Both the position numbers and the translations under genes were made by a program. From Candidatus Latescibacterota bacterium (GTDB lineage Bacteria > Latescibacterota > UBA2968): DNA of 64,000 nucleotides. Of this stretch, positions 4,295-55,785 are shown piece by piece; position 1 is the stretch's first letter, and every line of letters begins with the position of its first letter. The stretch is taken from positions 4,224,001-4,288,000 of the forward strand of contig OZ242320.1 of the NCBI GenBank assembly GCA_965208125.1, given 5' to 3'. The notes beneath the pieces were generated by a model. It saw only the letters and a list, made by a program, of their open reading frames with translations, was not told the DNA's origin and did no database searches.

Positions 4295-4342
4295 ATTGTA
4301 ACGCTCCTTGCTCGTATGCGCATCTCCACCGGCCAGCCAGCC

Positions 4343-4363
4343 GGCAACACGGTATTTTTTCAT
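4343..4363 (-). pseudogene. 5' stub MKKYRVA, resembling the start of a Gfo/Idh/MocA oxidoreductase
   Basis: Purine-rich RBS and ATG 10 nt after the ThuA-like stop; 7 recognisable codons, then unrelated sequence leading to the sulfatase RBS. Confidence 0.45.
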
Positions 4364-36582: not shown

Positions 36583-36604
36583 TGCGGTTCTCCTTAATAT
36601 CGAT

Positions 36605-39204: not shown

Positions 39205-40677
39205 TCAACGAGGGTCGCCAGCTTCAATTGTTCGTTCCAGCAGCCTGCTGCGCATGGCTTCTTCCCGATCTCGATAGTCCGGATTTCCTGCCAGATTCAC
39301 GAGTTCGCCCGGGTCGTTCTGCAAGTCGTAAAGTTCAGAACGATCATTCACATAATGTGCGTATTTCCACTTCTCGTTTCGAACCATGCGACCCCGAGAA
39401 AGGAAGAATGTTCCCGACTCAACCAGCGGCAATTCAGGTACGGGTTCAGTCCGACTTATGCCGGCTTTCAGCGCGTCCAATTCTGCTTCTGGTCCTCCCT
39501 CTGGCAAAGGCTGACGGCTGCCAACTTCTGCATAGGTACAGTCTCTTTCTGGAGCCATACCCGACATCATATCTGTCACACTTCTACCCTGAACACCCGG
39601 CGGGATCGAGATTCCGCTACTCTGGAGTAATGTAGGCATCAAGTCGATTTGCTCAATTTGCAGTGCGTTGGTTGCACCATCCCGTGCATGTTCCAAACCC
39701 CTTACGATCAATGGGACCTGGACAATGCAGTCGTAGAATGCAGCTGTTTTCCGAATGAGTCCGTGTTCGCCCAGGTACTCACCGTGGTCACCTGTGGCAA
39801 CAATGATGGTGTCGTCCCAACGACCAAGCGCTTTTAGTCCATCAAAGAATTTGCCCAGGCATTCATCCAGGTGCCTGAGCATGCCATAGTAATACGCCAT
39901 TGTCTGCCGCAGTTGCTCGTCATCCATGAGATGCAGCCACCCGCCGTGATAATAGACTTGCTGAACGAATGGTTTTGAGTCCAATTCACCCTCAGGTCTA
40001 TGTGGGAGAGGCATGTCCTCTGGTCTGTACATCGTGGCAAAAGGTTCGGGTGCCCGATAGGGCGGATGAACATCGGAAAAGCTCAACCACACAAACGAAG
40101 GCTCGTCACCCTTCCGTTCGAGATAATCGAGGGCATGATTCACATTGGCTCTTGCTGGAGATTCAGCAGGATCGAAAGGGTAGGTTCCGCCATACCAGAT
40201 TGGGTTTGGGTGATCTCCCCAACGGAAACGTCTTGTTTGTGATTCGAACACGGATGGGTCGATGGGTATTGCAGGCCCAGGAAATGGCTTCCCATAGGCT
40301 TCTCGCTGCTTTTGTCGAAGTGGCGACTCTTCAATACACGCTTCAAATCCTGCAGTTTCGGCATCTGGAAAGCAGTGGTTTTTCCCAAATAGGCCACAGC
40401 CGACACCAGCATCTTTCAATAGTCCTGGCAGATGAAACGCTTCCTTTTCTTGCATCAACAGCGTGTTGTCTCTGGAACCTGTAACGCTGGGATAACGACC
40501 CGTGAAAAATGCGACCCGTGATGCGACGCAGAGCGGAGAAGGTACGGTGCAGTTTTCAAACCTGATGGCTTCGCTGGCAAAGCGATCCAGATGAGGTGTC
40601 GCTCCGACGGGATTGCCATAGCATCCCAATGCGCGAGCGGCAAGATGCTCAATGGTGATTACGACAATGTTTTTCAT
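39205..40677 (-). CDS. Sulfatase (CxAxR variant)
   Basis: VITIEH, CVASR, GKNH, GDHG. Confidence 0.9.
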   Translation of the reverse strand: MKNIVVITIEHLAARALGCYGNPVGATPHLDRFASEAIRFENCTVPSPLCVASRVAFFTGRYPSVTGSRDNTLLMQEKEAFHLPGLLKDAGVGCGLFGKNHCFPDAETAGFEACIEESPLRQKQREAYGKPFPGPAIPIDPSVFESQTRRFRWGDHPNPIWYGGTYPFDPAESPARANVNHALDYLERKGDEPSFVWLSFSDVHPPYRAPEPFATMYRPEDMPLPHRPEGELDSKPFVQQVYYHGGWLHLMDDEQLRQTMAYYYGMLRHLDECLGKFFDGLKALGRWDDTIIVATGDHGEYLGEHGLIRKTAAFYDCIVQVPLIVRGLEHARDGATNALQIEQIDLMPTLLQSSGISIPPGVQGRSVTDMMSGMAPERDCTYAEVGSRQPLPEGGPEAELDALKAGISRTEPVPELPLVESGTFFLSRGRMVRNEKWKYAHYVNDRSELYDLQNDPGELVNLAGNPDYRDREEAMRSRLLERTIEAGDPR

Positions 40678-40680
40678 CTC

Positions 40681-42066
40681 TTAGCTCCCATCGACTTCCT
40701 CAGACCAGGCCGCGTACAGATCCTTCAGGCGCTCAACGACCTTGGGATGCTGATCAAGATCTTGACTCTCGGAGGGATCTTCCTTCAGGTTAAACAGGCA
40801 GGTATTCTGGAGAAGCTCTGTGCGTTCAACGATCCCATCGCAGGACGGCTCTTGACCTCTCCTGCCACCTTTATGCAATAGTTTCCAATCACCAGAGCGC
40901 ACGGCATAACTGTCGCCCCAGCGCCAGAAGAGGTCTCGCTTGTCTGCGATTTTTGTGACATCTTTTGGGATGGGTTGACCGTCCAATCCTTCGGGCAGTT
41001 CGATGCCTGCCGCCTGTAAACAGGTCGGAAGAATATCGAGCGTTGAGATCGTCCTGTCACAGATCGTTCCAGACGCCGACTCATTTGGACGGGCGAGGAT
41101 AAATGGCACGCGAATCCCGCCCTCCCAGAGCGTAAACTTGCTCCCGGCAAGCGGCAGGTTGCAGGCACCGGTGTTCGGTGCGCCTCCGTTGTCTGAAAAC
41201 ATGATCACGATGGTGTTGTCGGCAAGCGATAGCTGATCCAACGTGTCCAGAAGGCGACCGATATTGTTGTCGAGGCAGTTGAGGTTCGCCAGATAGTATC
41301 TGCGAAACTCGTCGGCATTGATCTCGCCGAGGGTGACATACCTTTTGAACCAGTCCTCATACCCGCCCATGGTCTCCGGATCGTAGTTTGGGATCTCCCT
41401 TACGCCGTGCTTGTCGAGGTATCGCTTTGGCACCTGGTGAATCAGGTGATGCACGGAGTTGTAAGAGAGTGTTACAAAGAAAGGTTCTTCCTGATGGCCT
41501 TCGAGAAAATCGATTGTCGCATCGGTGAAGATCTCCGTCAGATAACCTTCTCCAAATTCTTTGTAACCCTGGTTGTGCATAAGCGGTCCAACAACCGCGC
41601 TGTGCCCTTTTGGATCGGGCGTGCGATCTTCGATATCTCTGGTGAGCAGAAAATAGTCGTGGCCGTGTGCCGAAAAACCGAGAAACTCGTCATAGCCGTG
41701 GTTCAGCGGGTATTCGTGAGCTTCGTGATCGTGAAAGCCCAGGCCGTAGTCATTCTTGCCAAAGCGCGCTGTGGTATAGCCGTTAGCCTTCATGATTTCG
41801 GCGATGTTCTTTTCTGTTTCTGGATGTCCGCATAAAAAGGAGGATTTCGGATCCCAGCGCACCTGGTGCCGTCCCGTATTCCATCCAGCACGCGAAGGGC
41901 TGCATACGGGAGCTGTCACATAGGCCTGTGAAAAGAGAACGCCGCGCTCAGCGAGCCGGTCCATGTTTGGCGTTTGCACGTCCGGCGCATGATGATTGAA
42001 TGCGGTCAGATCGCCGTAGCCCTGATCGTCTGTAACAATGATGAGAAAATTTGGTTTTGTGCCCAT
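40681..42066 (-). CDS. Sulfatase (arylsulfatase-like)
   Basis: VTDDQGYGD, CSPSR, SDNGG. Confidence 0.93.
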   Translation of the reverse strand: MGTKPNFLIIVTDDQGYGDLTAFNHHAPDVQTPNMDRLAERGVLFSQAYVTAPVCSPSRAGWNTGRHQVRWDPKSSFLCGHPETEKNIAEIMKANGYTTARFGKNDYGLGFHDHEAHEYPLNHGYDEFLGFSAHGHDYFLLTRDIEDRTPDPKGHSAVVGPLMHNQGYKEFGEGYLTEIFTDATIDFLEGHQEEPFFVTLSYNSVHHLIHQVPKRYLDKHGVREIPNYDPETMGGYEDWFKRYVTLGEINADEFRRYYLANLNCLDNNIGRLLDTLDQLSLADNTIVIMFSDNGGAPNTGACNLPLAGSKFTLWEGGIRVPFILARPNESASGTICDRTISTLDILPTCLQAAGIELPEGLDGQPIPKDVTKIADKRDLFWRWGDSYAVRSGDWKLLHKGGRRGQEPSCDGIVERTELLQNTCLFNLKEDPSESQDLDQHPKVVERLKDLYAAWSEEVDGS

Positions 42067-42167
42067 AATGATCTACCCGGTAATCTTGAACCGGTTGTCG
42101 ATTTTCCCAGATAGCCGGTTTTTATTTCGTTTGAAACGCCTGGGTTTTTACCAGAATGTGGAAGAAC

Positions 42168-43646
42168 TCACGCAAACCCGCCGAGAAGCTGCTCTCTGGT
42201 CATTACCTTGATTGGTGGCAGGTTATCGACCATTCCCGCGTCCGTGCGTCGAAGCTCATCAATGGTTCCTTGCCGCAATTGGGCGAGCAACTCGTGGTAA
42301 TCGGATTCCAAAGCGAGGTTTTCCAGTTCCTCGGGGTCATTCTCGAGATCGTACATCTCTTCGATCTCCCCGGGGACGAGCCAGCGGATATATTTGTACT
42401 TTCCCGTGCACAGAGATACCCACCAGGGGATAGGAGGATTGCCTATTGGCTCGCCACAGCCGACATCGGTGTCTTCTCCAAAATAATGACCCGTACACTC
42501 CATCAGCAGCGGGCGATCCCATTCGGCGTTGGGATCGGAGAGCAATGGTGTCAGGTCCTCCCCGTGCATCTTCCAGGGTTGTTCCATGCCGATCAACGAG
42601 AGAAAGGTAGGCGGGATATCCTGGCCACCGATTGGCACATCGCATACTGTGCCTGCGGGAATCCGTCCCGGCAGCCGCATGATCATCGGTGCTTTGATAT
42701 TGGCATCATAGGGCGCCACCTTGAGTCGAAAGCCGTGCTGTCCCCAGGCAAATCCCTGGTCCGACGTAAAGACGACCAGGGTATCATCTAATTGCCCCAT
42801 CTCCTCTATGGCGCCGATCACCCTGCCAACCCCTTCATCCAGGGCGCGCACGCCCCGGTTGTATTGTTGTTCCCAATCGGTGAGGGTCCGTCCATCCCGG
42901 ATGCCTACCGGTTGGCCGTGATCTCCCTCGCGCCAAACACCATAGTCCCGCATATGTGTCGCCTTGGTCGGGCGCGGCGGATAGATGTCTTCTGGCGTGG
43001 GGACCTGGGAAACATCTGGATAATCCTGGAGATGGCGGTCAGCCACTTTCCAGGGGCCGTGTACTGCGTCATAGCACAGCCAGAGGTGCCAGGGCTTATC
43101 CGGTTCTTCTGCCCGTCCACGGAGAAATTCAAGTGCATACTCCGTGTAGTTATCGGTAGAATAGCCGCCAACCGGTTCCGGCGGCCCCCCGTTGATGCTC
43201 ATATTCTGATTGACATAGTAGGGCCCGTATTTCTCGGGTTGGCTGTGGTCCCAGATGGCAGAAAAATCCCAGTACCGACCGTGACCATGATCGGGACCTG
43301 TGTGCCATTTGCCGACGATGCCTGTGTACCAACCGTTCTCACGGAGATTCTCGAGCCAGTACGGACACTGGTCTGGATCGCGGACATAGTTTGGGTAGCT
43401 CGTGGGCAGGTGCATGCTCATCACGCCATGCGGCAATTTTCCGGTCAGGTACGTGGCGCGTGAAGGCGCACACCAGGCACTGGTATAGCAGTTGGAAAAA
43501 CGCATCCCCTCATGGGCGAGACGATCAATGTTTGGCGTACTGATCCACGAATGCGCCTCGGGATAGCAACTCACAGACCGAAAGCTCTGATCGTCGGTGA
43601 AGATGTATAAAATGTTGCTCGGATGGTTCGATTGATCATGGTTCAT
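42168..43646 (-). CDS. Sulfatase
   Basis: IFTDDQ, CAPSR, GKWH, SDQG. Confidence 0.93.
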   Translation of the reverse strand: MNHDQSNHPSNILYIFTDDQSFRSVSCYPEAHSWISTPNIDRLAHEGMRFSNCYTSAWCAPSRATYLTGKLPHGVMSMHLPTSYPNYVRDPDQCPYWLENLRENGWYTGIVGKWHTGPDHGHGRYWDFSAIWDHSQPEKYGPYYVNQNMSINGGPPEPVGGYSTDNYTEYALEFLRGRAEEPDKPWHLWLCYDAVHGPWKVADRHLQDYPDVSQVPTPEDIYPPRPTKATHMRDYGVWREGDHGQPVGIRDGRTLTDWEQQYNRGVRALDEGVGRVIGAIEEMGQLDDTLVVFTSDQGFAWGQHGFRLKVAPYDANIKAPMIMRLPGRIPAGTVCDVPIGGQDIPPTFLSLIGMEQPWKMHGEDLTPLLSDPNAEWDRPLLMECTGHYFGEDTDVGCGEPIGNPPIPWWVSLCTGKYKYIRWLVPGEIEEMYDLENDPEELENLALESDYHELLAQLRQGTIDELRRTDAGMVDNLPPIKVMTREQLLGGFA

Positions 43647-43691
43647 TTGTTTGTTCTCCTGTCTTTTAAATTGGGTCGAAAATCCATCAGC

Positions 43692-45161
43692 TCAGCGTTT
43701 CACCTGGGTATAGGGGCTTGAAATATACTGCTTGTAGCCGTTAACCTCTCGTCCATGATTGCTGAAGAAATCGATCTGGGAAAACCCATCCTTTAACGGT
43801 ATGGTTGCAGTCCAGGCACCAGTCTTTGCATCGCGTTCCATATCCATCCATTGGTCTGCGGGGATTTGCTCGTGCAAGAAGGGGGCGGAACCTGCCGGAG
43901 CGCGATCATAGATCCACCATATGCGTCCGTTTATCGGCTGAGGTCCTTCATTAAAACGCACGCTGACACTTAGTTTGTCCTTGGAGATTTTATAATTTGA
44001 CTTCGGAGGCTGTAGCAAAGGCTCGCCACCAAAGAAGTGATGCCAGAGGAAGGCGTCTTTATTCTGTTCGTCCTTTGCAGCAGCGACATGCGGCGTTTGC
44101 GAGTGCCCACCGTTAGGTTCGTAATAGACTGGCAACTGGGGATGGTTTTGCGCTCCCCAGAGAATATCGTAGGCGACATAGTCATGCGTTCCCGGCTGAA
44201 AAAGAATATCAACGCCGCGCTCCATCAGACGATCCCAATTCTCCGTAACGCTCACCCCGGGCCGTAAGCGATCCGCAAAGCTTTGCATATCGTCCAGGGA
44301 TTTCCCCATTTTCAGCGCCATCTTACCCATACTGCGCTCAGATCCCACCATAACGCCTTGATACCATTTGGCGCGTTTTGGATCCAGGTCGATATCGCCG
44401 GCCTTTACAGCCTCAAAGAATGCTTTGTTTGCCTCTTCAGCTTTCGCCGTTGCTTCCCTGTCGGCTCTTCGAGTCGGCGAAAAGTAAGCAAACGCATGGT
44501 TGGAGCATGTCGCGGTAAAACGCTCGTCATGTATCAAGGCGACCGCAGGCGACATGCCGTTCTTGGAGCTGCCCGAACCGGCCACTTTGCCTTTTTCGAA
44601 GTAGTCGGTTTCCGCATACGCCGCGGTGGTTGCCCGCATTAAGGTCATCGACCAAATCCAGAGAGTCGTGTATCGAGGATTCAGGTCTTTCATGAACCTG
44701 CGCATCATTTTTTGCTCCAAACCCTGTTTCCCCGGAATCTGCCTAAACGCCTTGACGTGCGTCTTAACGAGGCCAACGCCACCTGCCAGCAGTTTTGCCT
44801 GAAAGTCGGTTGGGCGCGAGTCTTTCATCAACGTCTCATAGGGATTGGCTCCCGTAATGCTAAAGCCCTTCGCCTTGCCTTCGAGCGGCACAATCATACG
44901 CACCGGGATCCGATAATCTTGTCCCGGCCACCATTCGGCGACGTTGATTTCGATGAGCTTCTGTCGCGTCGTGCCTATCACCTCATCTACATGCCAGTCC
45001 TTCAACGTCTTTATATCCAGCGTGCTTTCGTCAAGAATCTCTTCAATATTGAACATGTCGCAATTCATACCAGAATCCTTCTCAGAATCGGCAGCAAACG
45101 CTACGGAAATCGCAAAAGTCGCGAGAATAACCAGCGATGCCATTATTCTAATTCTATCCAT
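43692..45161 (-). CDS. Secreted PqaA-like alpha/beta hydrolase, copy 1
   Basis: Signal peptide (AFA), GSSKNG elbow, GTHD, NGGH. Confidence 0.7.
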   Translation of the reverse strand: MDRIRIMASLVILATFAISVAFAADSEKDSGMNCDMFNIEEILDESTLDIKTLKDWHVDEVIGTTRQKLIEINVAEWWPGQDYRIPVRMIVPLEGKAKGFSITGANPYETLMKDSRPTDFQAKLLAGGVGLVKTHVKAFRQIPGKQGLEQKMMRRFMKDLNPRYTTLWIWSMTLMRATTAAYAETDYFEKGKVAGSGSSKNGMSPAVALIHDERFTATCSNHAFAYFSPTRRADREATAKAEEANKAFFEAVKAGDIDLDPKRAKWYQGVMVGSERSMGKMALKMGKSLDDMQSFADRLRPGVSVTENWDRLMERGVDILFQPGTHDYVAYDILWGAQNHPQLPVYYEPNGGHSQTPHVAAAKDEQNKDAFLWHHFFGGEPLLQPPKSNYKISKDKLSVSVRFNEGPQPINGRIWWIYDRAPAGSAPFLHEQIPADQWMDMERDAKTGAWTATIPLKDGFSQIDFFSNHGREVNGYKQYISSPYTQVKR

Positions 45162-45173
45162 TGCCTTCTCCTT
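45003..45173. repeat. 171-bp direct repeat with 49862..50032
   Basis: 2 mismatches by manual alignment; covers the RBS and first ~53 codons of the duplicated hydrolase. Confidence 0.9.
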
Positions 45174-45223
45174 TGCAGATTTGGTGTGGCTCGCTAAGAC
45201 CTATTTTGGTTCCAGGCTGTCTC

Positions 45224-45256
45224 TTAGACAACCGGCCTGATTTCAGGTGCTCCGTC
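45224..45256 (-). pseudogene. 3' remnant of a PhyH gene (DGAPEIRPVV*)
   Basis: Matches NGAPEIRPVV* ending 54885..55739; 24 nt identical to 50867..50890. Confidence 0.88.
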
Positions 45257-46337
45257 TCGCCGATGGCCTCGATGCGAAAGAAGCTGCAACCGTGCGAACA
45301 GCCTCGCTCCAATCATCCCAAAGCCCCGGACCTTCCGGGCGAGGCTCTGGCGGGGGAACTTCTGGCCCAAGTTCAAGTTCGTGGAGTTTTCTCACGTTGG
45401 GCGGTGGCGATGGTCGTGGCCCTTTGACATAACGGCCGTTATATACTCTGTCATATACAGATTTTTTGTAAGCATCATAAAGAATCATCTGTCGAATCTG
45501 CGGAGGATTGCTGTAGTTCCGCGTTGCCGAGTGGAACATTCGCCCGTGCCACAAAACCACATCGCCCTCGTCACCAAAAAACTCAAAGGGTTCAATGTCG
45601 GCGAGTGCGTCCTTGAGTCCTGCAGGCTGCGGCAAAACAAATGCCGCAGCGCCGCTTTCCGGATGGGGCGAATGTAGAATTGAATAGCGGGCAAGATCTA
45701 CAGAGTCCGGCTCTGCTTCGTAGAGCAAGCGGTGACTGCCGGGAAAAAGGGCGATGCCACCTCCACCCCTGGGAACCTGATCAACGTATGCGCTTGCCAC
45801 CAGATGCACCGGCTCGGGATCAATGTGTGCACCGGCACGGACGGCATCCGCCAGAGCAGGTGAGTCGCCAGGACGCTCTCTCGGCAGCACGCAATACATA
45901 CCGCGCAACTCCTTGCCACCCCAGACTGGCCAACCACGCAACCGACTTCCACGCGGATCTGGATCGGCCGCGGAGGAAGTTACCTCTGGTGTCACAACTT
46001 CACCTTCGCCGAGAAGTTGCTCAAACCACGGGAATACACGGCGTGGAAGCAAGTTGATTAAGTCCTCGTCGCCAGAGAGTTCACGCAATCGCCAGCCGTG
46101 GTCACCGGTGCGATCATTCATGCCATCAGGCGTGCTTTGACGATCTGCCTCCGGAAGACCGTTTAGCCAGGTTTGAGGATCGTCTCGGCGCAAATGACTT
46201 GAGGTGTTTCCCGCCCACAGCCTGTCCCGCGCTGCAGCACAAAGTTTGGGGTCGAGAATATTTCGTTTAACGAGGAATCCGTTCGTAATAAATTGTTGGA
46301 TCTCTTCTGTACTCAGTGCTGCCAATGCTGTATTCAT
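45243..46337 (-). CDS. PhyH-family dioxygenase
   Basis: FITNGFLV, HID, FPGSH, GDVVLWH..FHSA; its stop codon lies inside the remnant at 45224..45256. Confidence 0.85.
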   Translation of the reverse strand: MNTALAALSTEEIQQFITNGFLVKRNILDPKLCAAARDRLWAGNTSSHLRRDDPQTWLNGLPEADRQSTPDGMNDRTGDHGWRLRELSGDEDLINLLPRRVFPWFEQLLGEGEVVTPEVTSSAADPDPRGSRLRGWPVWGGKELRGMYCVLPRERPGDSPALADAVRAGAHIDPEPVHLVASAYVDQVPRGGGGIALFPGSHRLLYEAEPDSVDLARYSILHSPHPESGAAAFVLPQPAGLKDALADIEPFEFFGDEGDVVLWHGRMFHSATRNYSNPPQIRQMILYDAYKKSVYDRVYNGRYVKGPRPSPPPNVRKLHELELGPEVPPPEPRPEGPGLWDDWSEAVRTVAASFASRPSARRST

Positions 46338-46354
46338 GGAAATAACCCTTCTTT

Positions 46355-46401
46355 CTTCAATACTGAACCATTGTACGGACTTCAATACCGAACCATTGTA
46401 C
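46355..46401. repeat. Tandem 22-bp direct repeat, period 25
   Basis: CTTCAATACTGAACCATTGTAC / CTTCAATACCGAACCATTGTAC. Confidence 0.85.
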
Positions 46402-46604
46402 AAAAAAAAGAGTTGGATTTCAACAATTCTTAAAAGACAGGTACTTACGGAAGGCGATATATGTTATTGGGATTTTGCTCGAAAATCACCCTGAACAAAT
46501 TCGCTTGCTTCATGTCTGTCTCTTTTTGTAGTATGCATCCGAATCCTGCCCCTGGACACCAGCAGTAGTTTTGGTGATTTCAAATACATTGAGGAGGAAG
46601 AAAA

Positions 46605-48167
46605 ATGAAAGCAAGACCATTCAAAGGTGCGAAGATAGGCAGGGCTCTGACCATTGCATTGCTATTGGCTTTGACCGCGGGCAACGTCGCGGCCCAAAGC
46701 CCCACCGAGCTGCCGGCCAAAGATTTGAGCACGATTGATTTGTCAAAATCGGAAGGTGCTAAATACTTTCTCATAGTAAAGGCTTATGCCGATTATATGA
46801 TTATCCACGGGCGCGACCGTTACGGAAGAGAACATTCGCCCCTTTTTGCCACAACGCTTAACCGGGAAACCGGAAATGTATATCGCGAAAATCCTCCCGA
46901 TGCACCCAAAGGTATCCGCAATGGCGATCGCACTTGGCGTGGTTCAAATACGTCAAAAGATAATGGTTTATACAGCATACTTTATCATTTGACAGAAATC
47001 ACCGGAGATGACAAGTATGCACGGGAAGCGGATAAAGCAATCAAATGGTTTTTTGCCAACTGCCAAAGTCCTGAAACGGGATTTATGGCCTGGGGAGAAC
47101 ACATCGGTTGGGATTTTTTTACAGAGGCGCCTATTAAAATGGGTACTCGATCTTTGACACACGAGTACAAAATTTTCAATTATTGGGACAAGGTGTGGGA
47201 ATTTAATCCGGAAGCTGCTGAAAAGTTTGCACTGGGATTATGGGAACACCAGATTTATGCGCACGAAGGACCAGAAGCGGGCGAGTTTAGCCGACATGCC
47301 AGTTATGACACGCATAGTCCTGGAAAAGGAAGAGCTTTTCCCGCACATGGCGGCAATTATATCTATGTTTGGACAAAAGCATATCGGGAAACTGGCAAAG
47401 AAGTTTTTTTAACCGCCATTGAAACCGTATTGAATTATTATGAGCGAAATACAACCGATAAAGGTGCGATCTTATATGCATCAGATTTTCCTGAGCAATA
47501 TTCTTTGAAACAAAGTATGAATCTGGCATCCAATCTTTATCGCGCAAAGGATTTTATGCCCGCAGACCTTGCAAATAGGATGAAGAAATTGTCAGAAGGA
47601 ACAGATTCTTTGTATTTAAGTTTTGATCACGATCCGTCAAAAGGCGGAAAAGGATTTCTTGAATCCGCCAATCTTATGACCCTTGTACCGGGGAATTTTC
47701 GGAGGTCAAGTACTGGAACGGATGCCTGGACTGAAATGTGGTCGGCTGGTTATGGGGTGGGATCGGGAAGTACCGAGCAGGCAAACAAATGTTATGCGCG
47801 GTATAAACTAACAGGTATTGAAGGCTATAGAATCCTTTTTATGAAAGCGGTGAATGCCTATTACAACGAAGATCCTCCGCCGTCAGCAGTACTTTATCCC
47901 AGCAATTATTCCAGCATATTTAATATGATGATGAGTGCGTATGAATTAACAGGGGCAGAACGTTTTTTAAGCAAAGCAAAAACGTATATGGACTTATCGG
48001 TAGAAACTTTTCTGAGTGATCAATCCCCTCTGCCAAAAGCATCAAACCAAAGTGAACATTATGAAGCCATAACAGGTGGCCCAGAATTAATGGAAAATGT
48101 GCTGCGTTTATGGATGGTGATGAATCCTCAGGATCGTGCTGGCGAAACTGAAATAGGTGAAAAATAA
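46605..48167 (+). CDS. Secreted alpha/alpha-toroid protein (lyase-like), homologue of 10511..11929
   Basis: GAGGAGG RBS, signal peptide, GRDRYG, WGEH, FSRHA, FPAHGG. Confidence 0.75.
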   Translation: MKARPFKGAKIGRALTIALLLALTAGNVAAQSPTELPAKDLSTIDLSKSEGAKYFLIVKAYADYMIIHGRDRYGREHSPLFATTLNRETGNVYRENPPDAPKGIRNGDRTWRGSNTSKDNGLYSILYHLTEITGDDKYAREADKAIKWFFANCQSPETGFMAWGEHIGWDFFTEAPIKMGTRSLTHEYKIFNYWDKVWEFNPEAAEKFALGLWEHQIYAHEGPEAGEFSRHASYDTHSPGKGRAFPAHGGNYIYVWTKAYRETGKEVFLTAIETVLNYYERNTTDKGAILYASDFPEQYSLKQSMNLASNLYRAKDFMPADLANRMKKLSEGTDSLYLSFDHDPSKGGKGFLESANLMTLVPGNFRRSSTGTDAWTEMWSAGYGVGSGSTEQANKCYARYKLTGIEGYRILFMKAVNAYYNEDPPPSAVLYPSNYSSIFNMMMSAYELTGAERFLSKAKTYMDLSVETFLSDQSPLPKASNQSEHYEAITGGPELMENVLRLWMVMNPQDRAGETEIGEK

Positions 48168-48342
48168 ATACAATTTCAACTTACAGAGAAATAGGGAAGT
48201 GACCATGCAAAAAACTAAAACCACCTGATTGGAGGAGCACAATATGGGACTGGAAGTTTACGATTCAATACGGTGGAATCACATCAGTAAAACCAGTTTT
48301 TTCATTTGGAGAAAATCAATCAGTCAGGAGTCTAACAGATGA

Positions 48343-48468
48343 ACAATACCAACTGAGCCTGGTTTGGGTATTAGCATCGATGAAGATAAACTCATGGCAC
48401 AGGTTGGCGAACCCCGGCCCCGCAGCACCAGTTACGGTCTCGATGATGGATCGGTTGTAGACTGGTAG
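48343..48468 (+). pseudogene. 3' remnant of a galactonate dehydratase (DgoD)-like enolase-superfamily gene
   Basis: TIPTEPGLGISIDEDKL...DDGSVVDW*; PGLG and terminal DGSVxxW are characteristic of this family. Confidence 0.8.
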
Positions 48469-48535
48469 GATTTGCCATAATTTTTAGGAAAACGAACGCG
48501 CAACCCCAATGATCCCATTTGCTTCACCTCAGCCA

Positions 48536-50020
48536 TCAATGCTGAGATGGCGAAAGTTCCACTCGGGTATAAGGGCATGAAAGATACTGCTTGTAGCCGT
48601 TAACCTCTCGTCCATAATTGCTAAAGAAATCGATCCGAGAAAACCCCTCCTTTAACGGTATGGCTGCCGTCCATACGCCAGTCTTTGCATCATATTCCAT
48701 CTCCATCCATTGGTCTTCGGGGATTTGCTCGTGCAAGAATGGGGCGGAACCTGCCGGAGCGCGGTCGTAGATCCACCATATGCGTCCACTTTTCGGCTGA
48801 GGTCCTTCATTAAAACTCACGCTGACACTTAGTTTGTCCTTGTCGACTTTATGGCTCGACTTCGGAGGCTGTAGCAAGGGCTCGCCGCCAAAGAAGTGAT
48901 GCCAGAGGAAGGCATTGAGATTCTGATTATTTTTTGCTGCCGCGCTATGCGGTGTTTGTCTGTGTCCACCATTGGGTTCGTAATAGACCGGCAACTGAGG
49001 ATGGTTTTGCGCGCCCCAAAGAATGTCAAATGCAACATAGTCATGTGTTCCCGGCTGAAAAAGCATATCGACGCCTCGCTCCGTTAGCCGATCCCAATTC
49101 TCTGTCACACACAATCTGCTAAGAATGCAATCTGCCAGGTTGTGTATTTCGTCCCAGGATCTTCCCGCTTTCAACGCAAGTTCATGCAGACTCCTCTTTC
49201 CTCCCACCATATTGGCTTGATACCAACGCGCGCGTTGTTTGTTTAAATCGACATTGCCTGCCTTGACAGCCTCAAAGAATGCTTTGTTTGCCGCTCGCAC
49301 GTTATCCATCTCTTCCCTGTCAAATCTTCGAGTCGGCGAATAGTAAGCAAAGGCTCTATTGGAACATGTCGCGGTAAAACGCTCGTCATTAATCAAGGCG
49401 GTAGCAGGCGATATGCCGTTCTTGGAGCCGCCTGAGCCGGCCACTTTGCCTTTTTCAAAATGATCGGTTTCCGCATACGCGGCGGTTACAGCCCGCATTA
49501 AAGTCATCGACCAAATCCAGACCGTCGTGTATCGCGGGTTAAGGTCTTTCAGAAACAATTGTCCCACCTCTTGTTCCAGTCCCTGTTTTCCCGGGATCTG
49601 ATTGAACACCTTGACAACAGTCCTGACAATGCCAACGCCATTGGCTAACAGTTTTGCCTGAAAGGCGTTTGGTTTCGAATCTTTCATCAGTGCTTCATAT
49701 GGACTTCCTCCTGTGATATGAAAGCCCTTTGCTTTACCTTCGAGCGGCACAATCATGCGCACTGGAATCCGATAATCTTGTCCAGGCCACCATTCGGCGA
49801 CGTTGATTTCGATTAGCTTCTGTCGCGTCGTGCCTGTCGGCTTGTCCGTGTGCCAATCTTCCAACGTCTTTATATCCAGCGTGCTTTCGTCAAGAATCTC
49901 TTCAATATTGAACATGTCGCAATTCATACCAGAATCCTTCTCGGAATCGGCAGCAAACGCTACGGAAATCGTAAAAGTCGCGAGAATAACCAGCGATGCC
50001 ATTATTCTAATTCTATCCAT
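48536..50020 (-). CDS. Secreted PqaA-like alpha/beta hydrolase, copy 2
   Basis: Colinear paralogue of 43692..45161; GGSKNG. Confidence 0.7.
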   Translation of the reverse strand: MDRIRIMASLVILATFTISVAFAADSEKDSGMNCDMFNIEEILDESTLDIKTLEDWHTDKPTGTTRQKLIEINVAEWWPGQDYRIPVRMIVPLEGKAKGFHITGGSPYEALMKDSKPNAFQAKLLANGVGIVRTVVKVFNQIPGKQGLEQEVGQLFLKDLNPRYTTVWIWSMTLMRAVTAAYAETDHFEKGKVAGSGGSKNGISPATALINDERFTATCSNRAFAYYSPTRRFDREEMDNVRAANKAFFEAVKAGNVDLNKQRARWYQANMVGGKRSLHELALKAGRSWDEIHNLADCILSRLCVTENWDRLTERGVDMLFQPGTHDYVAFDILWGAQNHPQLPVYYEPNGGHRQTPHSAAAKNNQNLNAFLWHHFFGGEPLLQPPKSSHKVDKDKLSVSVSFNEGPQPKSGRIWWIYDRAPAGSAPFLHEQIPEDQWMEMEYDAKTGVWTAAIPLKEGFSRIDFFSNYGREVNGYKQYLSCPYTRVELSPSQH

Positions 50021-50039
50021 TGCCTTCTCCTTGCTGTCT

Positions 50040-50786
50040 CTATGCCGTTTCCACTACGTTAGGACGGCGGACGGATGGGGGCGTGAGAACGCGTTTTTGT
50101 TGCTCGGTCAGGTCTTCGTAGTCTTCGTGATTGTAGTATATTGATGCGTAGGAAGCGTGGCCGGGGGTGAATTTGTAGAGTAGGGTTCTGCGTTCGTTTT
50201 CAGCAGTCCAGGGCAAGGTTCCGTGCATCGTCGCTTCTGTGAAGATGAGGGCGTCGCCTGTTTCTGCACTTGGATTGGCGAGGTAGTGAGGGATGCGCTT
50301 AAAGGAGCGAACCTCTTCAGGGACGTTGAGGGCAAAATTGGATTTGTGTGAACCGGGTACGCAGCAGAATCCGCCAGAACCTGGGGGGGCGGGTGCAAGG
50401 AAGTAGACGACTACGGTCAAGCCATTGCGCATGACGCCGTCGCGATATTTGTAATAGTGCGTACCTGCACGATGGTCCCCACCATGGAGGCCACCTTTGC
50501 GCCCACCTTGACGCATAAAGATGCCGTAGTCGTGGTCGGCACGAAATTGGGGGCCGAGGAGTTCGCTGAGGTAAGGAATCATGTTGGGGTGGTCAAACAG
50601 ATTTTGGAAGGGTTTGCCCCAGAGCGAGACTCTGCGGGGAATCTTGAGTCCGTTATTCACTTCCTCTTGGTCGGCCATTTTTTGATCGGCAATTGCATTG
50701 AGTTCGTCTACTTCGGCTTGAGAGAGTACATTTTTGACAACGATGTATCCTTGCAGGTCAAATATGAATTTTTCTTCAAGTGTCAC
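50040..50786 (-). CDS. PhyH-family Fe(II)/2OG enzyme with an HxG motif
   Basis: FDLQGYIVV, LHGG, VPGSHK, MHGT; GTG start after GGGAG. Confidence 0.88.
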   Translation of the reverse strand: MTLEEKFIFDLQGYIVVKNVLSQAEVDELNAIADQKMADQEEVNNGLKIPRRVSLWGKPFQNLFDHPNMIPYLSELLGPQFRADHDYGIFMRQGGRKGGLHGGDHRAGTHYYKYRDGVMRNGLTVVVYFLAPAPPGSGGFCCVPGSHKSNFALNVPEEVRSFKRIPHYLANPSAETGDALIFTEATMHGTLPWTAENERRTLLYKFTPGHASYASIYYNHEDYEDLTEQQKRVLTPPSVRRPNVVETA

Positions 50787-50866
50787 GGAGAATCTCCCTT
50801 TCTATATGGTCAGGTAAACCAGACCCTGGTTCGCTTCTATTTCCTCTGTTCCGTTCCCTATCTTTT

Positions 50867-50929
50867 TTAGACAACCGGCCTGATTTCAGGCGCGCGTTCC
50901 ACTTGTTCCTGCGTTAATATTTGCTCCAT
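50867..50929 (-). pseudogene. 20-codon ghost gene: PhyH-like head fused in frame to a PhyH tail
   Basis: GGAG RBS, then MEQILTQEQVERAPEIRPVV*. Confidence 0.85.
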
Positions 50930-50973
50930 TACATCTCCAGAAAATCAGTATTGATAAAAACACAGAGGGGATT

Positions 50974-52401
50974 CTAAACACTTGGCAAAGGCACAGTATC
51001 TCCTGTTTCATGTTGCCACAATCGAATCTTCGCCGCCATATCGCGAATGCGATCGCGATGTTCAGGAACATCAAACAGATTGTTTTCTTCATAAGGATCT
51101 GTATTAAGGTCGAACAACTCACACTGATCACCAGCACACAAATTCAACTTCCAGCGATCACCCGTCACCACAGATCGCCAGGGCAATGTCGCCATCAAGT
51201 TAATGCTTGGATTCCCTAAATTGCGATCGCCAATCCCATTCCACTCCATAAATGCAACGTGATCCTTCAAATCGCGCTCACCGGTGAGTGCACCAGCCAA
51301 ACTCTCCCCTTCACACTGATCTGAAACTTCAACGCCCGCCAGATCCAAAAGCGTCGGCACCAAATCCGCATGCCCAAACACACCATCGATTCGTTTCTGT
51401 TCCTTATTCAACCACGGCACACTGAGCAAAAACGGCACTCGCGCAGACTCTTCGTAAAAAGTCCGCTTTTCCATCATCGCATGATCGCCCACCATTTCTC
51501 CATGATCACTCGTGTAAGCAATAATCGTATTCTCCAGTTGCCCTGTCTCTTCCAATGCCTGAATGATCCGCCCCACAGCATCATCCACAATCTTCATATT
51601 TCCGAAGTATTGCGATCTCACTTTCCGCCATCCCAATTCCGTACTTAAATCTTCACCTGCCTCCTTCTTCGTTGCATAATGCTCTGCTCGCACCCGATTA
51701 AATCGCGAATGCCCTTCAGGCTGTTTCAAAAACGTCGGGCCAACCGGCAATTCCTCAGGATCATACAAACCGTCATACGGCCCTGTATATGGAGGGTGCG
51801 GTTCAAACGTACTGCACACCAGCAACCAGGGCTGATCGACATTTGCTCGAATAAACCGATCCGCTTCCTGCGCGACAAACGCCCCGACCTGTTGTTCCGC
51901 TGGCAAACGCGCGCGATCTCCTGCAGAAAATTGTTTCAAGTCCGGTGCCAAATGCGAGGGTGGTTCAACGCCCTGCGCCACCAACCACTCATAGTGGGAA
52001 CTCATCGGCGCATCTTGAATCGTATTCAAATGCCGCAAATTATCCTGAATACTGATCCACTCATCAAACCCATGTTGGCGAACGGTATCGTTGCCCAAAT
52101 GCCATTTGCCCATATATGCCTTGCGATATGTATCTGGCATCATTTCCGCAATCGACTTTGTATCTTCTCGTAGATGAATCCCATTCGCCACACATCCGTG
52201 CGAATGAGGGTACAACCCAGACATCAGCGTACCCCGCGATGGCGTACACACAGCCTGACCAACATACGCATTCTCAAAAACAAAAGACCGCTCCGAAAGC
52301 GCATTCAAATGCGGCGATTGAATCCAATCATTGCCGTAACACGACATGGTATCTGTGCGTTGCTGATCTGTGAACACAAAAAGAATGTTCGGTTGATTCA
52401 T
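50974..52401 (-). CDS. Sulfatase
   Basis: FTDQQR, CTPSR, GKWHLG, SDHG. Confidence 0.94.
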   Translation of the reverse strand: MNQPNILFVFTDQQRTDTMSCYGNDWIQSPHLNALSERSFVFENAYVGQAVCTPSRGTLMSGLYPHSHGCVANGIHLREDTKSIAEMMPDTYRKAYMGKWHLGNDTVRQHGFDEWISIQDNLRHLNTIQDAPMSSHYEWLVAQGVEPPSHLAPDLKQFSAGDRARLPAEQQVGAFVAQEADRFIRANVDQPWLLVCSTFEPHPPYTGPYDGLYDPEELPVGPTFLKQPEGHSRFNRVRAEHYATKKEAGEDLSTELGWRKVRSQYFGNMKIVDDAVGRIIQALEETGQLENTIIAYTSDHGEMVGDHAMMEKRTFYEESARVPFLLSVPWLNKEQKRIDGVFGHADLVPTLLDLAGVEVSDQCEGESLAGALTGERDLKDHVAFMEWNGIGDRNLGNPSINLMATLPWRSVVTGDRWKLNLCAGDQCELFDLNTDPYEENNLFDVPEHRDRIRDMAAKIRLWQHETGDTVPLPSV

Positions 52402-52496
52402 ATCTATCCCTCAAATTTGTCGTTCGCGGTATTCCCTACTTGTTAAACCAAAGAAGCTGCAATCCGTTTTCGCTCACAGTACTTTTTAATTTTCGT

Positions 52497-53846
52497 TTAC
52501 ATTTGTTTCCTGCGAAATGCGTGGGGATTTACCATTTCATATCCCCATCGATCCAACAATTCCTGCCCGTTCTCAAACGCGTCGTTCTGTTCCTTCAACA
52601 GATCCGAAAGCAAACCTTCCAGATGCGTTTCAACAGATTCTACCTCAGGCCGACCACAAAGGTTCTCCAACTGATAAGGATCTGCCTCATTGTCATACAG
52701 CAACCAGGACCCCTCCAGGTCACGCACATAAGTATAACGGCTCGTGCGAACGCCTCGATATTCCCTGCCACCATGTTCATAAGAATAATTGGCAAACGGA
52801 ACGTAGCATCCAAAAAGTGAAGCCTCCAAAGGCGCATCGGCTTCACCGAGCATGTGTTTGGCAAAACTCACCCCTTCGACGCCTTCCGGTACAGGCGCGC
52901 CCACCAGATCCAACAACGTCGGCATCATATCTGGTATGCCAAAAGGGGTGTCGATTTGGCGACTCGTCCCATCTGGCAATCGCAACAGAAAGGGAACAAG
53001 AATGGATTCATCCCAGGGCCGTATTTTCCGATCATGGCCTTGCGACCCATTCATTTCACCGTGGTCAGACGTAAACACAAGAATTGTATCCTCTGTCATC
53101 CCGAGGCGTTCAAGTGCTTCTTCAACACGCCCAACACAGTGATCAAGTGCCGTAATATGCGCATAATAACCCCACATATCATTCCGGGCAGTCGCTTCAC
53201 TCTCAGCAGGCACATTGTCTCTCAATACGATTTCATCTTCATTGTAGAGCGCTCTGTATTCTTCCGGCACTTTGTGGAAAGGGTTATGAGGCGGGCCATA
53301 TGAAACAAAAAGGAAAAAGGGATCGTCTTCATCCTGCCTGCCCTCCAGATACTCAATCGCACAATCGGTCTGTGCAAACGCATCGTATCCTTCCCACTTT
53401 TTCATAATACCCGAGTCATCATAATAGGGCGAATCGTAATAATTGTGCGAGCATTCGTGCGCGCGCCAAAAGTCAAAGCCCAACCGTCGCTCAGGTGGGA
53501 TGAAATTTTGCTCGTGGGTATCTCCGTCCAAATGCCACTTGCCAATGTATGCGGTGTCATAACCGTGTGACTTTAGAACCTCAGCGAATGTGGTCGTATT
53601 GGGCTCAAGCCGAATCTGGTTTAAAAAGATCCCATGCGTCAGTGGATATTGCCCGGTCAAAAGACAGGCACGAGCCGGACAACAAACCGGGCACGTTGAC
53701 ACAGTCGTATCCAACCGAATACTCTTTTGAGCCAGGGCATCGAGATTGGGTGTCTTAACATTTGGATCTCCCGCATACCCCGTCGCCTGTGCGCGCCACT
53801 GATCGGTCAAAATGAATACAATATTGGGCTTCTCTTTGTTGGCCAC
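52497..53846 (-). CDS. Sulfatase
   Basis: GTG start after GGGAGG; LTDQWR, CCPAR, GKWH, SDHG. Confidence 0.93.
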   Translation of the reverse strand: MANKEKPNIVFILTDQWRAQATGYAGDPNVKTPNLDALAQKSIRLDTTVSTCPVCCPARACLLTGQYPLTHGIFLNQIRLEPNTTTFAEVLKSHGYDTAYIGKWHLDGDTHEQNFIPPERRLGFDFWRAHECSHNYYDSPYYDDSGIMKKWEGYDAFAQTDCAIEYLEGRQDEDDPFFLFVSYGPPHNPFHKVPEEYRALYNEDEIVLRDNVPAESEATARNDMWGYYAHITALDHCVGRVEEALERLGMTEDTILVFTSDHGEMNGSQGHDRKIRPWDESILVPFLLRLPDGTSRQIDTPFGIPDMMPTLLDLVGAPVPEGVEGVSFAKHMLGEADAPLEASLFGCYVPFANYSYEHGGREYRGVRTSRYTYVRDLEGSWLLYDNEADPYQLENLCGRPEVESVETHLEGLLSDLLKEQNDAFENGQELLDRWGYEMVNPHAFRRKQM

Positions 53847-54040
53847 AAAAACCTCCCTACTTAATTGCACAACAATCAGAATGCAATCACGATACGAAAA
53901 AGTTGTCCATACCTCATGATAATCAAACAAATATTGATAATCAATATAGCCCAAAAAAACAATATTTGCCGTAGTTCAGAAATTAACTATTATGGGACAT
54001 GGCAGAAAAGGCTTGTAAACCATCGAATGAGGAATACCCT

Positions 54041-54808
54041 ATGGCTCTAAACGAAGATCAGCTCACCTTTTACCGACAAAACGGCTACTTGCTGGCCTCC
54101 GGCCTGATTTCTGATCAGATCGCGGCTCAAGCCGAAGCGGCGATGTGGAAGCTGATGGACATGGACGCGGGGGATGCGTCCACCTGGTCGACGGTGCCGG
54201 AGACCGCCGATACGTATAACAAAGGCAGCGGTGCGGTGATCTTTAACGGAGTGCAGGATCCCGATTTGATGGCCTGCGCCACAGACGACTACCTCAACGC
54301 TGTAGCGCAGCTGCTGGGCGAACCGATTGATTCGTTGCACTCACCCGAAGCGATCTTTGCACTAAATTTGTTGGGGCGTCCGGGGCAATGGACCATGCCA
54401 CAGCACCCGCACATCGACGGCCTCAACCCGAAGCATGTGCCCAAGACCTTTCCCGGGCCCTATCGCATCACCAGCCTCCTCTATCTAAGCGATATCGAAC
54501 CGCAGGGCGGCGGGACCTGTGTTTGGCCTGGTTCGCCCAGCAAGATACGCGCCCTGGCTGAATCCGATCCGGTCAAGTACGAGCACCTGAAAGATCTGAA
54601 CAAGGACATCCCTTCGTTAGATCTGGAACCCGGTATCGAACTGACACCGAAGCGCGGTGATATCCTTTTTTTTCAACACTTGTTCGGCCACAATGGGTCG
54701 GTCAATACTGCGGCTAAACCACGTTTTATGATGCGCTTTTTTTGTTCGTGCGAAAAATGCTACACGACTTGGTCCAAGGCGGGTCATTGGGGTTTTTGGA
54801 CGCCATAG
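54041..54808 (+). CDS. PhyH-family dioxygenase
   Basis: NGYLL, HID, WPGS, RGDILF..GHNG. Confidence 0.88.
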   Translation: MALNEDQLTFYRQNGYLLASGLISDQIAAQAEAAMWKLMDMDAGDASTWSTVPETADTYNKGSGAVIFNGVQDPDLMACATDDYLNAVAQLLGEPIDSLHSPEAIFALNLLGRPGQWTMPQHPHIDGLNPKHVPKTFPGPYRITSLLYLSDIEPQGGGTCVWPGSPSKIRALAESDPVKYEHLKDLNKDIPSLDLEPGIELTPKRGDILFFQHLFGHNGSVNTAAKPRFMMRFFCSCEKCYTTWSKAGHWGFWTP

Positions 54809-54884
54809 GCCTCATCCCATAATACCGCGTTACACAAAAGCGCGTCAACGAATCACAGAAATATCAAAAAGATTTGATTCCTTC

Positions 54885-55739
54885 TTAAACAACCGGTCTA
54901 ATCTCTGGCGCACCGTTCTCTTCACACCACGGCGTAAGTGGGCTATCTCCACCGCCAGCTTTGTACCCCTCTATCTTTGGATATCTTTCACCTACCAAAT
55001 ACCGACCCAATTCATCCAGTTTATCCATAAAGGCAGGCTCCTGGCTTCGATAATCCAGCGGCATAACCCAACGATAGCCATAACCAATCATGATCGCCTT
55101 TCGCATGTTACCCGATGTGTTTATACCTGCTGCATGCCCGGTTCGATTTTCAAAGAATAGGCAATCACCCGCCTTTAAAGAAGCTTCAACATAACCTTTT
55201 GGTCCAGGCTCTCCTTCAGGGACTTCAATGGGGTTGCTGTGGCGATTGGAGCCAGGCGCAACCAGCGTCATACCCGAGTTTGGTTCGGTCAGATCATTGA
55301 GATAAAACGCGCACTTTAACAAAACACGGGGCACATGATTTCCCAATACTTTTGTCGCTGCACCATAATCGCGATGCCATCCGACCCGCCGAACTTTCTT
55401 CGAGGGATCGGAAGAGCCTCTATAAGCAAGTTGTGATACCATCAGTTGGATGTGTGCACCCAAAAGCTGTACCGCAATCGACAGCGATTTGGCGTGGGTT
55501 AGCAGTGGAATAAAAGCATCATCTTTCACAATACAATTCTTAAAGCCCAGTCGTCCCGTGCGCATGTGTTGGTCGTCACTCGCAATCAACCGATCAGCAG
55601 CCTCAACGACCCGGTCAATCATGTCCTGATCGAGCACGTCGCGCACGATGAGATAGCCTTGCTCATCAAACTGCCTGATTTCTTGTTCTGAAAGCGCATG
55701 CCAGTCCAGATCAATCGACGATTCTGTCATCTGAGCCAT
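54885..55739 (-). CDS. PhyH-family dioxygenase
   Basis: FDEQGYL, WHRD, APGS, GHAA; ends APEIRPVV. Confidence 0.9.
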   Translation of the reverse strand: MAQMTESSIDLDWHALSEQEIRQFDEQGYLIVRDVLDQDMIDRVVEAADRLIASDDQHMRTGRLGFKNCIVKDDAFIPLLTHAKSLSIAVQLLGAHIQLMVSQLAYRGSSDPSKKVRRVGWHRDYGAATKVLGNHVPRVLLKCAFYLNDLTEPNSGMTLVAPGSNRHSNPIEVPEGEPGPKGYVEASLKAGDCLFFENRTGHAAGINTSGNMRKAIMIGYGYRWVMPLDYRSQEPAFMDKLDELGRYLVGERYPKIEGYKAGGGDSPLTPWCEENGAPEIRPVV

Positions 55740-55785
55740 TGTTTGTCCTCCATTCAACAATTTTTAAAATATAAGTTTATCGCTT

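Follow-up and report, generated by a model that had tools for sequence, protein, structure and literature searches.

The window analysed here, a stretch of 64,000 nucleotides from a Candidatus Latescibacterota bacterium (contig OZ242320.1, positions 4,224,001 to 4,288,000; C1:4224001-4288000 of G000, a single-contig genome of 5.75 Mb, 5,747,750 bp), contains an array of PhyH and sulfatase genes in which a gene for a putative hydrolase is present twice. Upstream of hydrolase copy 1, the last codons of a deleted PhyH gene of the PhyH291 type abut the hydrolase 5' leader; upstream of copy 2, the same remnant is separated from the start of that leader by 826 bp holding one complete PhyH gene, PhyH248. 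We compared both sites across 21 genomes of the genus, G000 included. The reading that best accounts for the data, to which we assign a probability of about 0.68, is that both sites are differently eroded descendants of one older array stretch, produced by duplication followed by differential, selection-trimmed deletion. The PhyH248 indel is best read as a gene-sized deletion scar and not as a mobile cassette, the process being ordinary and its density unusual.

Two sites upstream of the hydrolase

Genes around the two sites lie nearly all on the minus strand. Hydrolase copy 1 (43692-45161, minus strand) encodes a secreted protein of 489 amino acids (aa) that is 98% identical to the single copies of G007, G003 and G009, and copy 2 (48536-50020, minus strand) a protein of 494 aa that is 86-88% identical to those of G015, G019 and G006; these two are the only copies in the genome. 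The 23-mer TAGACAACCGGCCTGATTTCAGG occupies 45225-45247 and 50868-50890, as a preliminary description of this DNA had reported, and with up to three mismatches allowed it is found at these two sites only, both in the window (0 expected from 100 shuffles) and in the whole genome; the stretch common to the sites is really 27 nt with one mismatch (45224-45250 and 50867-50893). A second anchor, the 9-mer GCTGTCTCT, was likewise placed correctly at 45216-45224 and 50033-50041. The window holds a third copy of it at 12139 on the minus strand; three copies compare with 0.46 expected and were reached in 0 of 100 shuffles, and in copy 2 the 9-mer directly borders the hydrolase homology.

Between these anchors copy 2 carries 50042-50867, 826 bp with exactly one PhyH gene, PhyH248, whose TAG stop codon (50040-50042) lies at the left junction and overlaps the 9-mer by two bases. 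The hydrolase leader itself also differs between the sites. The full leader of copy 1 (45162-45223, minus strand) consists of its start (the 9-mer, 45216-45224), a 42-bp middle (45174-45215) and the ribosome-binding site (45162-45173), whereas the leader remnant of copy 2 (50021-50041, minus strand) retains the ribosome-binding site (50021-50032) and the 9-mer without the 42-bp middle, which in copy 1 lies between the 9-mer and the point where hydrolase homology resumes (45173/50032). Only 19 nt separate the PhyH248 stop codon from the hydrolase start codon. Pairwise alignment shows the two sites to be homologous, with bounds and gap sizes as originally claimed. When 50042-50867 is excised in silico from copy 2, the copy-1 joint results base for base, with a junction ambiguity, or microhomology, of 1 nt only; the indel takes out one cistron cleanly, from just past one stop codon to just past the next.

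Remnants of a PhyH291-type gene

The 24-mer that includes the 23-mer (45224-45247 in copy 1) encodes, on the minus strand, PEIRPVV followed by TAA, identical to the terminal residues of the PhyH291 gene resident in the window (54885-55760, minus strand; C-terminus ..GAPEIRPVV*). Differences between the remnants and the PhyH291 3' end (from 54885) are confined to synonymous third positions, which identifies the remnants as 3' ends of a diverged gene of the PhyH291 type on which selection once acted. The copy-1 remnant, or ghost (45224-45255, minus strand), holds the last ~10 codons and TAA of the deleted gene and reads ..GAPEIRPVV* in a frame that is not that of the neighbouring PhyH364; the copy-2 ghost (50867-50893, minus strand) holds the last 8 codons and TAA.

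With up to three mismatches allowed, the 24-mer occurs at 6 places in 5 of the 21 genomes: both sites of G000, G015 in the copy-2 form (with a GC indel), G007 in the copy-1 form, and G004 and G014, where it ends a C-terminal fragment of PhyH291 upstream of sulfatase C and is nearest to the copy-1 ghost, with two mismatches. Both G000 remnants read CCT GAA where G004, G014, G019 and G006 read CCG GAG, and these two shared derived bases point to one allele type as their source. In G006, the PhyH291-type gene has GAA in place of its TAA stop codon, and its frame continues into the sulfatase C leader.

Unrelated sequences flank the two remnants on the left. Upstream of the copy-1 ghost lies a 21-nt stretch (45256-45276, minus strand; blastn-short E 0.013) that matches, at 20 of 21 nt, the interior of a 536-aa sulfatase-like gene of G007 and, at 17 of 17 nt, that of G015 and G014; this gene adjoins PhyH291 in all three genomes, and the stretch is a probable sulfatase ghost. 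Further upstream is PhyH364 (45243-46337, minus strand; Pfam PhyH, E 2.3e-7), whose last codons and stop codon come from the ghosts. The gene terminates three codons past ..GCTTCTTT in G003 and G009, whereas in G000 and G007 it is cut three codons short of this normal end and reads through the ghosts to a TGA within the 24-mer. PhyH364 of G000 and G007 has thereby a new 12-residue C-terminal tail with a stop codon from ghost DNA (45243-45276). Copy-2 ghost sequence adjoins the native 3' trailer of sulfatase D (50905-50973, minus strand), which leads to PhyH291 in G019 and G006 and to sulfatase E in G009; G004 has the trailer truncated at ..GGAGATGTA, with the hydrolase ribosome-binding site following immediately. 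We had considered the stretch upstream of the copy-2 24-mer as a 20-codon open reading frame (ORF), or as a PhyH start fused in frame to its end, and rejected both on finding it to be the sulfatase D trailer of G019, G006 and G009. The claim that the two places are the same site therefore stands for the remnant, the leader start and the hydrolase, and fails for the sequence to the left of the remnants.

These flanks raise the question of whether two unrelated deletions of different PhyH291-type genes, together with a chance 9-mer, might mimic a common site that never existed. A sulfatase D trailer on one side and a sulfatase ghost with PhyH364 on the other are what such a coincidence predicts, and PhyH291 ghosts arose independently at least three further times in the genus. 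The remnants nevertheless share 24 identical nucleotides and both derived bases, where an independent origin of the two APEIRPVV remnants had been named as a possible refutation. The 9-mer, the other element suspected of being coincidental, is over-represented in the window and sits exactly at the homology boundary; in G019 the leader, with one base different, runs unbroken from just after PhyH248 to the hydrolase start codon, marking the 9-mer as a true leader start. With the base-for-base regeneration of the copy-1 joint, this largely refutes coincidence, which we regard as quite improbable.

Polarity of the indel

PhyH248 matches Pfam PF05721 (PhyH, the phytanoyl-CoA dioxygenase-like 2OG-Fe(II) oxygenases) over residues 9-200, with 46.3 bits where the gathering cut-off is 22 (E 8e-12). 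The genome holds one 100% copy, the next paralogue being 58% identical at the aa level, and orthologues in G015, G019, G020, G004 and G014 are 96-99.6% identical (aa). Its module (50040-50800, minus strand) comprises the gene (50040-50786, GTG start) and its own ribosome-binding stretch (50787-50800). Fused to it is a sulfatase C-type leader (50801-50866, minus strand) that joins the PhyH291-type stop codon. In G004 and G014 the remnant stop codon and the same 65 nt lead to sulfatase C, beginning with its ribosome-binding site and start; G019 and G006 have an intact PhyH291-type gene, behind it a shorter version of the leader, and next sulfatase C; and the same leader also stands ahead of sulfatase C in G007, G003, G009, G015, G020, G013 and G011. 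In G019, G020, G004 and G014, PhyH248 has another leader, and homology to copy 2 starts only at the ribosome-binding stretch. The start codon of PhyH248 is GTG in G000 and G015 and ATG in the four genomes with the other leader.

The 81 bp upstream of PhyH248 (50787-50866) had been taken for its leader, and the 826 bp for a discrete inserted unit. Neither assignment survives this comparison: the right-hand 65-81 bp are ancestrally contiguous with the 23-mer, and the junction proposed at 50867|50868 is absent from copy 2, the real one lying near 50800/50801, where PhyH248 has its ribosome-binding site. Contiguity of remnant and leader in G004, G014, G019 and G006 indicates that the remnant-leader joint of copy 2 is native and that the joint of remnant and hydrolase leader in copy 1 is derived. 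The filled form would thus be the older one and copy 1 a deletion scar. What had been described as a gene-precise insertion or excision is indeed a one-cistron indel, its polarity being that of deletion from a filled ancestor and not of insertion.

The hydrolase leader shows a graded series. G019 has, after PhyH248, a 9-nt trailer and behind it the complete leader, the 42 bp included, one base differing in the 9-mer region; progressively shorter 3' parts of the leader precede the hydrolase in G006, G020 and G014. The copy-2 leader remnant is identical in G015 and G000, and the 42-bp gap that the two have in common is read as a secondary deletion. Two other derivations of this region were tried. 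Reading the copy-1 leader as a diverged paralogue of that of copy 2 was rejected (a local alignment scored 13, 2000 shuffles giving 14.2 +/- 2.4), and homology of the 9-mer with the last three codons of PhyH248 (ETA) was dropped, the G019 leader beginning past the stop codon, although this does not formally exclude it.

Divergence of the hydrolase copies

The two hydrolase copies are 80% identical at the aa level and 82.8% at the nucleotide level when aligned from the ribosome-binding site to near the 3' end. Identity reaches 98% in the initial 100 nt and ranges from 65 to 93% in later windows of 100 nt. Across most genomes this opening stretch of ~100 nt is 96-100% alike, so that similarity between genomes is as high as within G000, and private gene conversion between the two G000 copies is unsupported. 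Hydrolase alleles in the genus are mosaics at the 100-nt scale; that of G015 mixes copy-1-like and copy-2-like windows, which indicates that exchange between lineages occurs. Either a duplication of old date or an import from another lineage with exchange afterwards would fit the divergence of the copies.

Such exchange could in principle have produced the filled site directly, if homologous replacement, with the 24-27-nt remnant and the hydrolase 5' end as its two arms, had brought a filled allele (leader plus PhyH248) from another strain or from the other copy into a copy-1-like empty site. The near-identical flanks (27 nt with one mismatch; 98% over the first 100 nt of the hydrolase), the mosaic alleles, and the fact that G000 combines a G007-like and a G015-like arrangement would all accommodate this. 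With 27 nt, the remnant arm would be of about the minimum length for RecA-dependent exchange, which we count against this route, as we do the fact that the first 100 nt bear no trace of a private conversion tract. Replacement moreover leaves the origin of the empty joint unexplained, and the contiguity of remnant and leader is ancestral. We consider this route unlikely, preferring differential deletion from a filled ancestor.

Sister deletions and ghosts elsewhere in the genus

Presence or absence of PhyH248 ahead of the hydrolase recurs in the comparison of G019 with G006, with other end points that fall at ACC within GGCACC/GGAACC. That the same gene was affected a second time, with quite other junctions and a short direct repeat, favours illegitimate deletion over a defined cassette. 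Compared with G015, G007 is without the whole copy-2 module, which is gone between two GTGTTTTT repeats, and in G019 and G006 the repeat ATAGA marks where the sulfatase C leader has been shortened. Direct repeats at these sister events are 3-8 nt long, compared with 1 nt at the copy-1 joint.

Ghosts and fragments are found at further positions. Between sulfatases E and D of the window lies a 22-nt ghost (52439-52460, minus strand) that matches the PhyH364 end of G003 and G009; G009 retains sulfatase E followed by an intact PhyH364, and the deletion of this gene in G000 is bounded by a TTGCAG repeat. PhyH291 has been deleted between sulfatases D and E in G013 and G011 and is represented by a C-terminal fragment in G004 and G014 and by an N-terminal one in G014. 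A 37-nt piece of the hydrolase 3' part follows PhyH248 in G020, G004 and G014, and other fragments derive from the hydrolase, sulfatase-HEAT, sulfatase B and PhyH248. Duplicated fragments occur in G014 and G011, and G000 has its two hydrolase copies.

Rearrangement of the whole array

Thirteen loci from 12 other genomes and G000 contain the same dozen or so enzyme genes, with 85-99% aa identity, in an arrangement that differs in every one of these 13 genomes. Comparison of G015, G019, G020 and G004 with the 64-kb window, counting blocks that span 150 bp or more at 85% identity or more, gave 73 blocks, none of them inverted (0/73), and 63 non-collinear joins. Block ends fall at 65 distinct sites. 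Gene ends (within 30 nt) or spacers account for 55 of these 65, compared with 11% of random positions, and the median distance to a gene boundary is 15 nt compared with 307 nt at random; the remaining 10 sites lie deep in genes, as do 89% of random positions. Offsets cluster, among other places, just past stop codons. PL520 and PhyH269 lie on the opposite strand in every locus that has them. One 20-kb region elsewhere in the genome, used as a control, is far more collinear: G015 matches 15.3 kb of its 20 kb in one piece.

The hydrolase itself is found in 12 of the 20 other genomes of the genus and in 0 of 20 further genomes from other genera. Two of its five upstream contexts are another gene's leader up to that gene's ribosome-binding site, namely that of sulfatase D (G003 and G009) and that of the HEAT-sulfatase (G013, G002 and G011).

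Two further rearrangements were seen away from the hydrolase. A PhyH gene (2228-2938) and a sulfatase (2948-4363) are swapped in G019 and G004, with an ATGACA start-codon ghost at the old position in G019. The gene for an AAA_14/DUF4143 ATPase (36605-37753), present in G020 and G004, is missing in G015, gene-precisely, with breaks at 36599 and 37800.

Searches for mobile elements

Neither terminal inverted repeats nor a target-site duplication were found at 50042/50867 or at 45224, in agreement with the original account of 50042-50867, and no attC-like inverted repeat flanks or ends this segment. A Pfam scan of 45 window ORFs detected no integrase, transposase or reverse transcriptase. Five tyrosine-recombinase (Phage_integrase) matches exist in the genome, the nearest at 4,368,171, 80 kb past the window end, and RVT_1 has no match in the whole genome. 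Rfam models gave no match at E up to 0.1 within 43000-56000, and promoter-like and terminator-like sites were not above shuffled sequence.

Excision products were sought in the assembled contigs of public sponge and marine metagenome runs, a form of data blind to rare forms; the sponge runs contain the window stretch. Contigs of four runs (X1, X15, X4 and X6), which would miss rare forms, showed no 50041-50868 joint and neither a back-joint nor a circle of 50042-50867. A scan of metagenome contigs returned 0 matches for the 24-mer and 5 for a 19-mer of the hydrolase leader, all in unrelated coding sequences.

Repeated elements of other kinds are present in the genome. A 50-85-nt element (L073:19418-19504), seen in G000 at 1.00-1.02 Mb, has dozens of copies per genome, and a second repeat of ~230 nt (L073:16212-16446) has copies of 67-83% identity. 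Both also occur in G015, G019, G020 and G004, and neither was seen at the junctions studied.

Proposed model

We propose that the ancestral stretch would have read, in the direction of transcription, a PhyH291-type gene, its downstream intergenic leader, possibly further genes, PhyH248, the hydrolase 5' leader and the hydrolase. In both copies the PhyH291-type gene would have been deleted down to its last 8-10 codons, leaving the 23/24-mer. Copy 2 would have kept PhyH248, now behind the sulfatase C leader through a fusion at the ribosome-binding site of PhyH248, and have dropped 42 bp from the hydrolase leader; copy 1 would have lost everything between the ghost stop codon and a point just past the PhyH248 stop codon, so that the ghost abuts an intact hydrolase leader. 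The deletions were probably illegitimate and independent of RecA, with little or no microhomology, and may have acted on duplicated or recombined segments. Selection would then retain those products whose remaining cistrons keep a stop codon and a ribosome-binding site, and it is this selection for intact cistrons that would make the indel look gene-precise. Microhomology at shared purine-rich ribosome-binding sequences may add regularity. The two-copy state of G000 could be a duplication intermediate or a recombinant of G007-like and G015-like arrangements.

Several lines of evidence support this model: remnant and leader are contiguous ahead of sulfatase C in other genomes; PhyH248 has another leader in four genomes; the copy-2 form occurs in G015, the copy-1 form in G007 and an intermediate leader in G019; the two remnants share their derived bases; the left flank of copy 1 is a patchwork of ghosts; independent ghosts exist elsewhere in the genus; sister deletions carry short direct repeats; gene order differs in all 13 genomes without any inversion of blocks; and searches for recombinases, inverted repeats and target duplications were negative.

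Other observations weigh against it. The copy-1 junction offers a microhomology of just 1 nt, so its sequence is no proof of the mechanism. The hydrolase copies are ~80% identical past their first ~170 nt and are thus not simple recent duplicates; later allelic replacement must be assumed, for which the mosaic G015 allele is indirect support. The differing left flanks imply two PhyH291-type genes at different array positions, and no sampled genome has an intact gene that ends in the exact 24-mer, all six places being remnants or fragments. The polarity argument is one of parsimony over related, non-independent genomes, and assembled contigs cannot exclude rare excision products. Finally, block ends concentrate between -12 and -16 relative to start codons, where 7 of the 26 sites closest to a start fall, and all five upstream contexts of the hydrolase are joined at one ribosome-binding sequence; together these make the array more regular than random deletion alone predicts.

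That regularity bears directly on whether a dedicated, orientation-preserving mover of single cistrons, integron-like or of some unknown kind and anchored at stop codons and ribosome-binding sites, operates here. Extreme gene-level modularity with 55 of 65 block ends at gene ends or spacers and no inversion among 73 blocks, the joining of the hydrolase to five contexts at one sequence, and the far greater collinearity of the one control region all speak for such a system. Against it, neither a recombinase or reverse transcriptase in or near the array nor repeats, attC-like hairpins or target duplications at the junctions were found. Spacers are often too short for a site, events on the same gene differ in junction position (G019/G006 compared with copy 1/copy 2), and the many partial-gene ghosts and mid-gene breakpoints (10/65) are what imprecise deletion leaves; a dedicated mover is for these reasons very improbable, the least favoured of the explanations weighed here. 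Scarcely better placed is the broader proposal that cistron-by-cistron reshuffling, with orientation kept and with anchoring at ribosome-binding sites and stop codons, affects the entire array of co-directional sulfatase, PhyH and accessory genes (64 kb or more) in sponge-associated Latescibacterota, the PhyH248 indel being one product; it might proceed, for example, by template switching from the purine-rich ribosome-binding sequence of one cistron to the similar one of the next, or through a trans-acting recombination system of an unrecognised kind.

Reading the indel as a deletion scar leaves no case here for a new mobile element and illustrates that ordinary deletions can look gene-precise through selection on stop codons and ribosome-binding sites. 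Taken alone the site is ordinary; the gene-precise reshuffling across this exceptionally plastic array is the more interesting part. The array provides a natural, densely sampled system for the rearrangement of an operon-like array by duplication and differential loss, and could show whether ribosome-binding sequences serve as recombination microhomologies.

Other features of the window

To the right of the copy-2 site lie sulfatase D (50974-52401, minus strand), sulfatase E (52497-53954, minus strand), PhyH269 (53999-54808, plus strand), PhyH291 and a HEAT-repeat sulfatase (55786-57780, minus strand). PL520, a pectate-lyase-like gene (46605-48167, plus strand), lies between the two hydrolase copies, and sulfatases C, B and A (39205-43646, minus strand) lie to the left of copy 1. 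The array probably serves the degradation of sulfated polysaccharide from the sponge host, a function judged solely from its Pfam content.

The name hydrolase is provisional in that the protein has no Pfam, NCBIfam or PDB sequence match. Relatives with 67-75% identity are found in Pirellulaceae, Rubripirellula and Verrucomicrobiales metagenome-assembled genomes. Its AlphaFold model, from a 10-sequence alignment, is poor (mean predicted local distance difference test score, pLDDT, 39.8). Language-model neighbours, 16% of whose members carry PF10142 (PhoPQ-activated pathogenicity-related, alpha/beta-type hydrolases), weakly suggest a PhoPQ-related link.

In the gap between PL520 and hydrolase copy 2, 48343-48465 (plus strand) may be a further ghost; it weakly resembles (E 0.27) the extreme C-terminus of the enolase superfamily (MR_MLE_C), and it has no significant match to the two MR_MLE genes of the window. 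One contig of run X6 (record 27; window 46706-50583) joins PL520, a 168-nt piece of hydrolase copy 2 (49453-49620) and PhyH248, a further arrangement in which most of that hydrolase is deleted.

Comparison with known systems

Insertion sequences, transposons and miniature inverted-repeat transposable elements differ from the segment described here, which has no terminal inverted repeats, target duplication, transposase or multiple copies. Integron gene cassettes resemble it in consisting of gene-sized modules in one orientation that are present or absent at an array position. Unlike the integron system, with its attC sites and IntI, the present array has no attC-like repeat, no adjacent integrase and no common core site; its junction positions vary, and gene fragments are left behind.

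At the level of gene content, the array is akin to the mosaic polysaccharide-utilisation and sulfatase clusters of marine and host-associated bacteria, in which arrays of sulfatases, lyase-like enzymes and accessory enzymes vary between close relatives. It departs from them in that single genes and not whole loci are permuted, with no mobile-element genes. The accessible part of the literature on Latescibacteria, sulfatases and sponges yielded no report of single-gene permutation of such arrays for Latescibacterota.

With respect to mechanism, microhomology-mediated deletion, which is illegitimate and independent of RecA, together with pseudogene erosion in bacterial genomes, shares with our observations the 3-8-nt repeats at sister junctions, the ghosts, and the lack of a recombinase or specific site. 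The difference lies in the mere 1 nt at the junction described here; unusual, too, are the high event density and the clustering at cistron boundaries. As set out in the available parts of two accounts (PMC5745709, PMC4223735), the model of tandem duplication-random loss describes gene-order change in animal mitochondrial genomes. Judged from those parts, the likeness lies in an order permuted without inversion, pseudogene remnants at former positions and duplicates as intermediates. The differences are that the present case is a bacterial chromosomal array of protein genes spanning more than 64 kb and not a mitochondrial genome, and that its duplicates are 80% identical, so that exchange between lineages has probably been involved as well.

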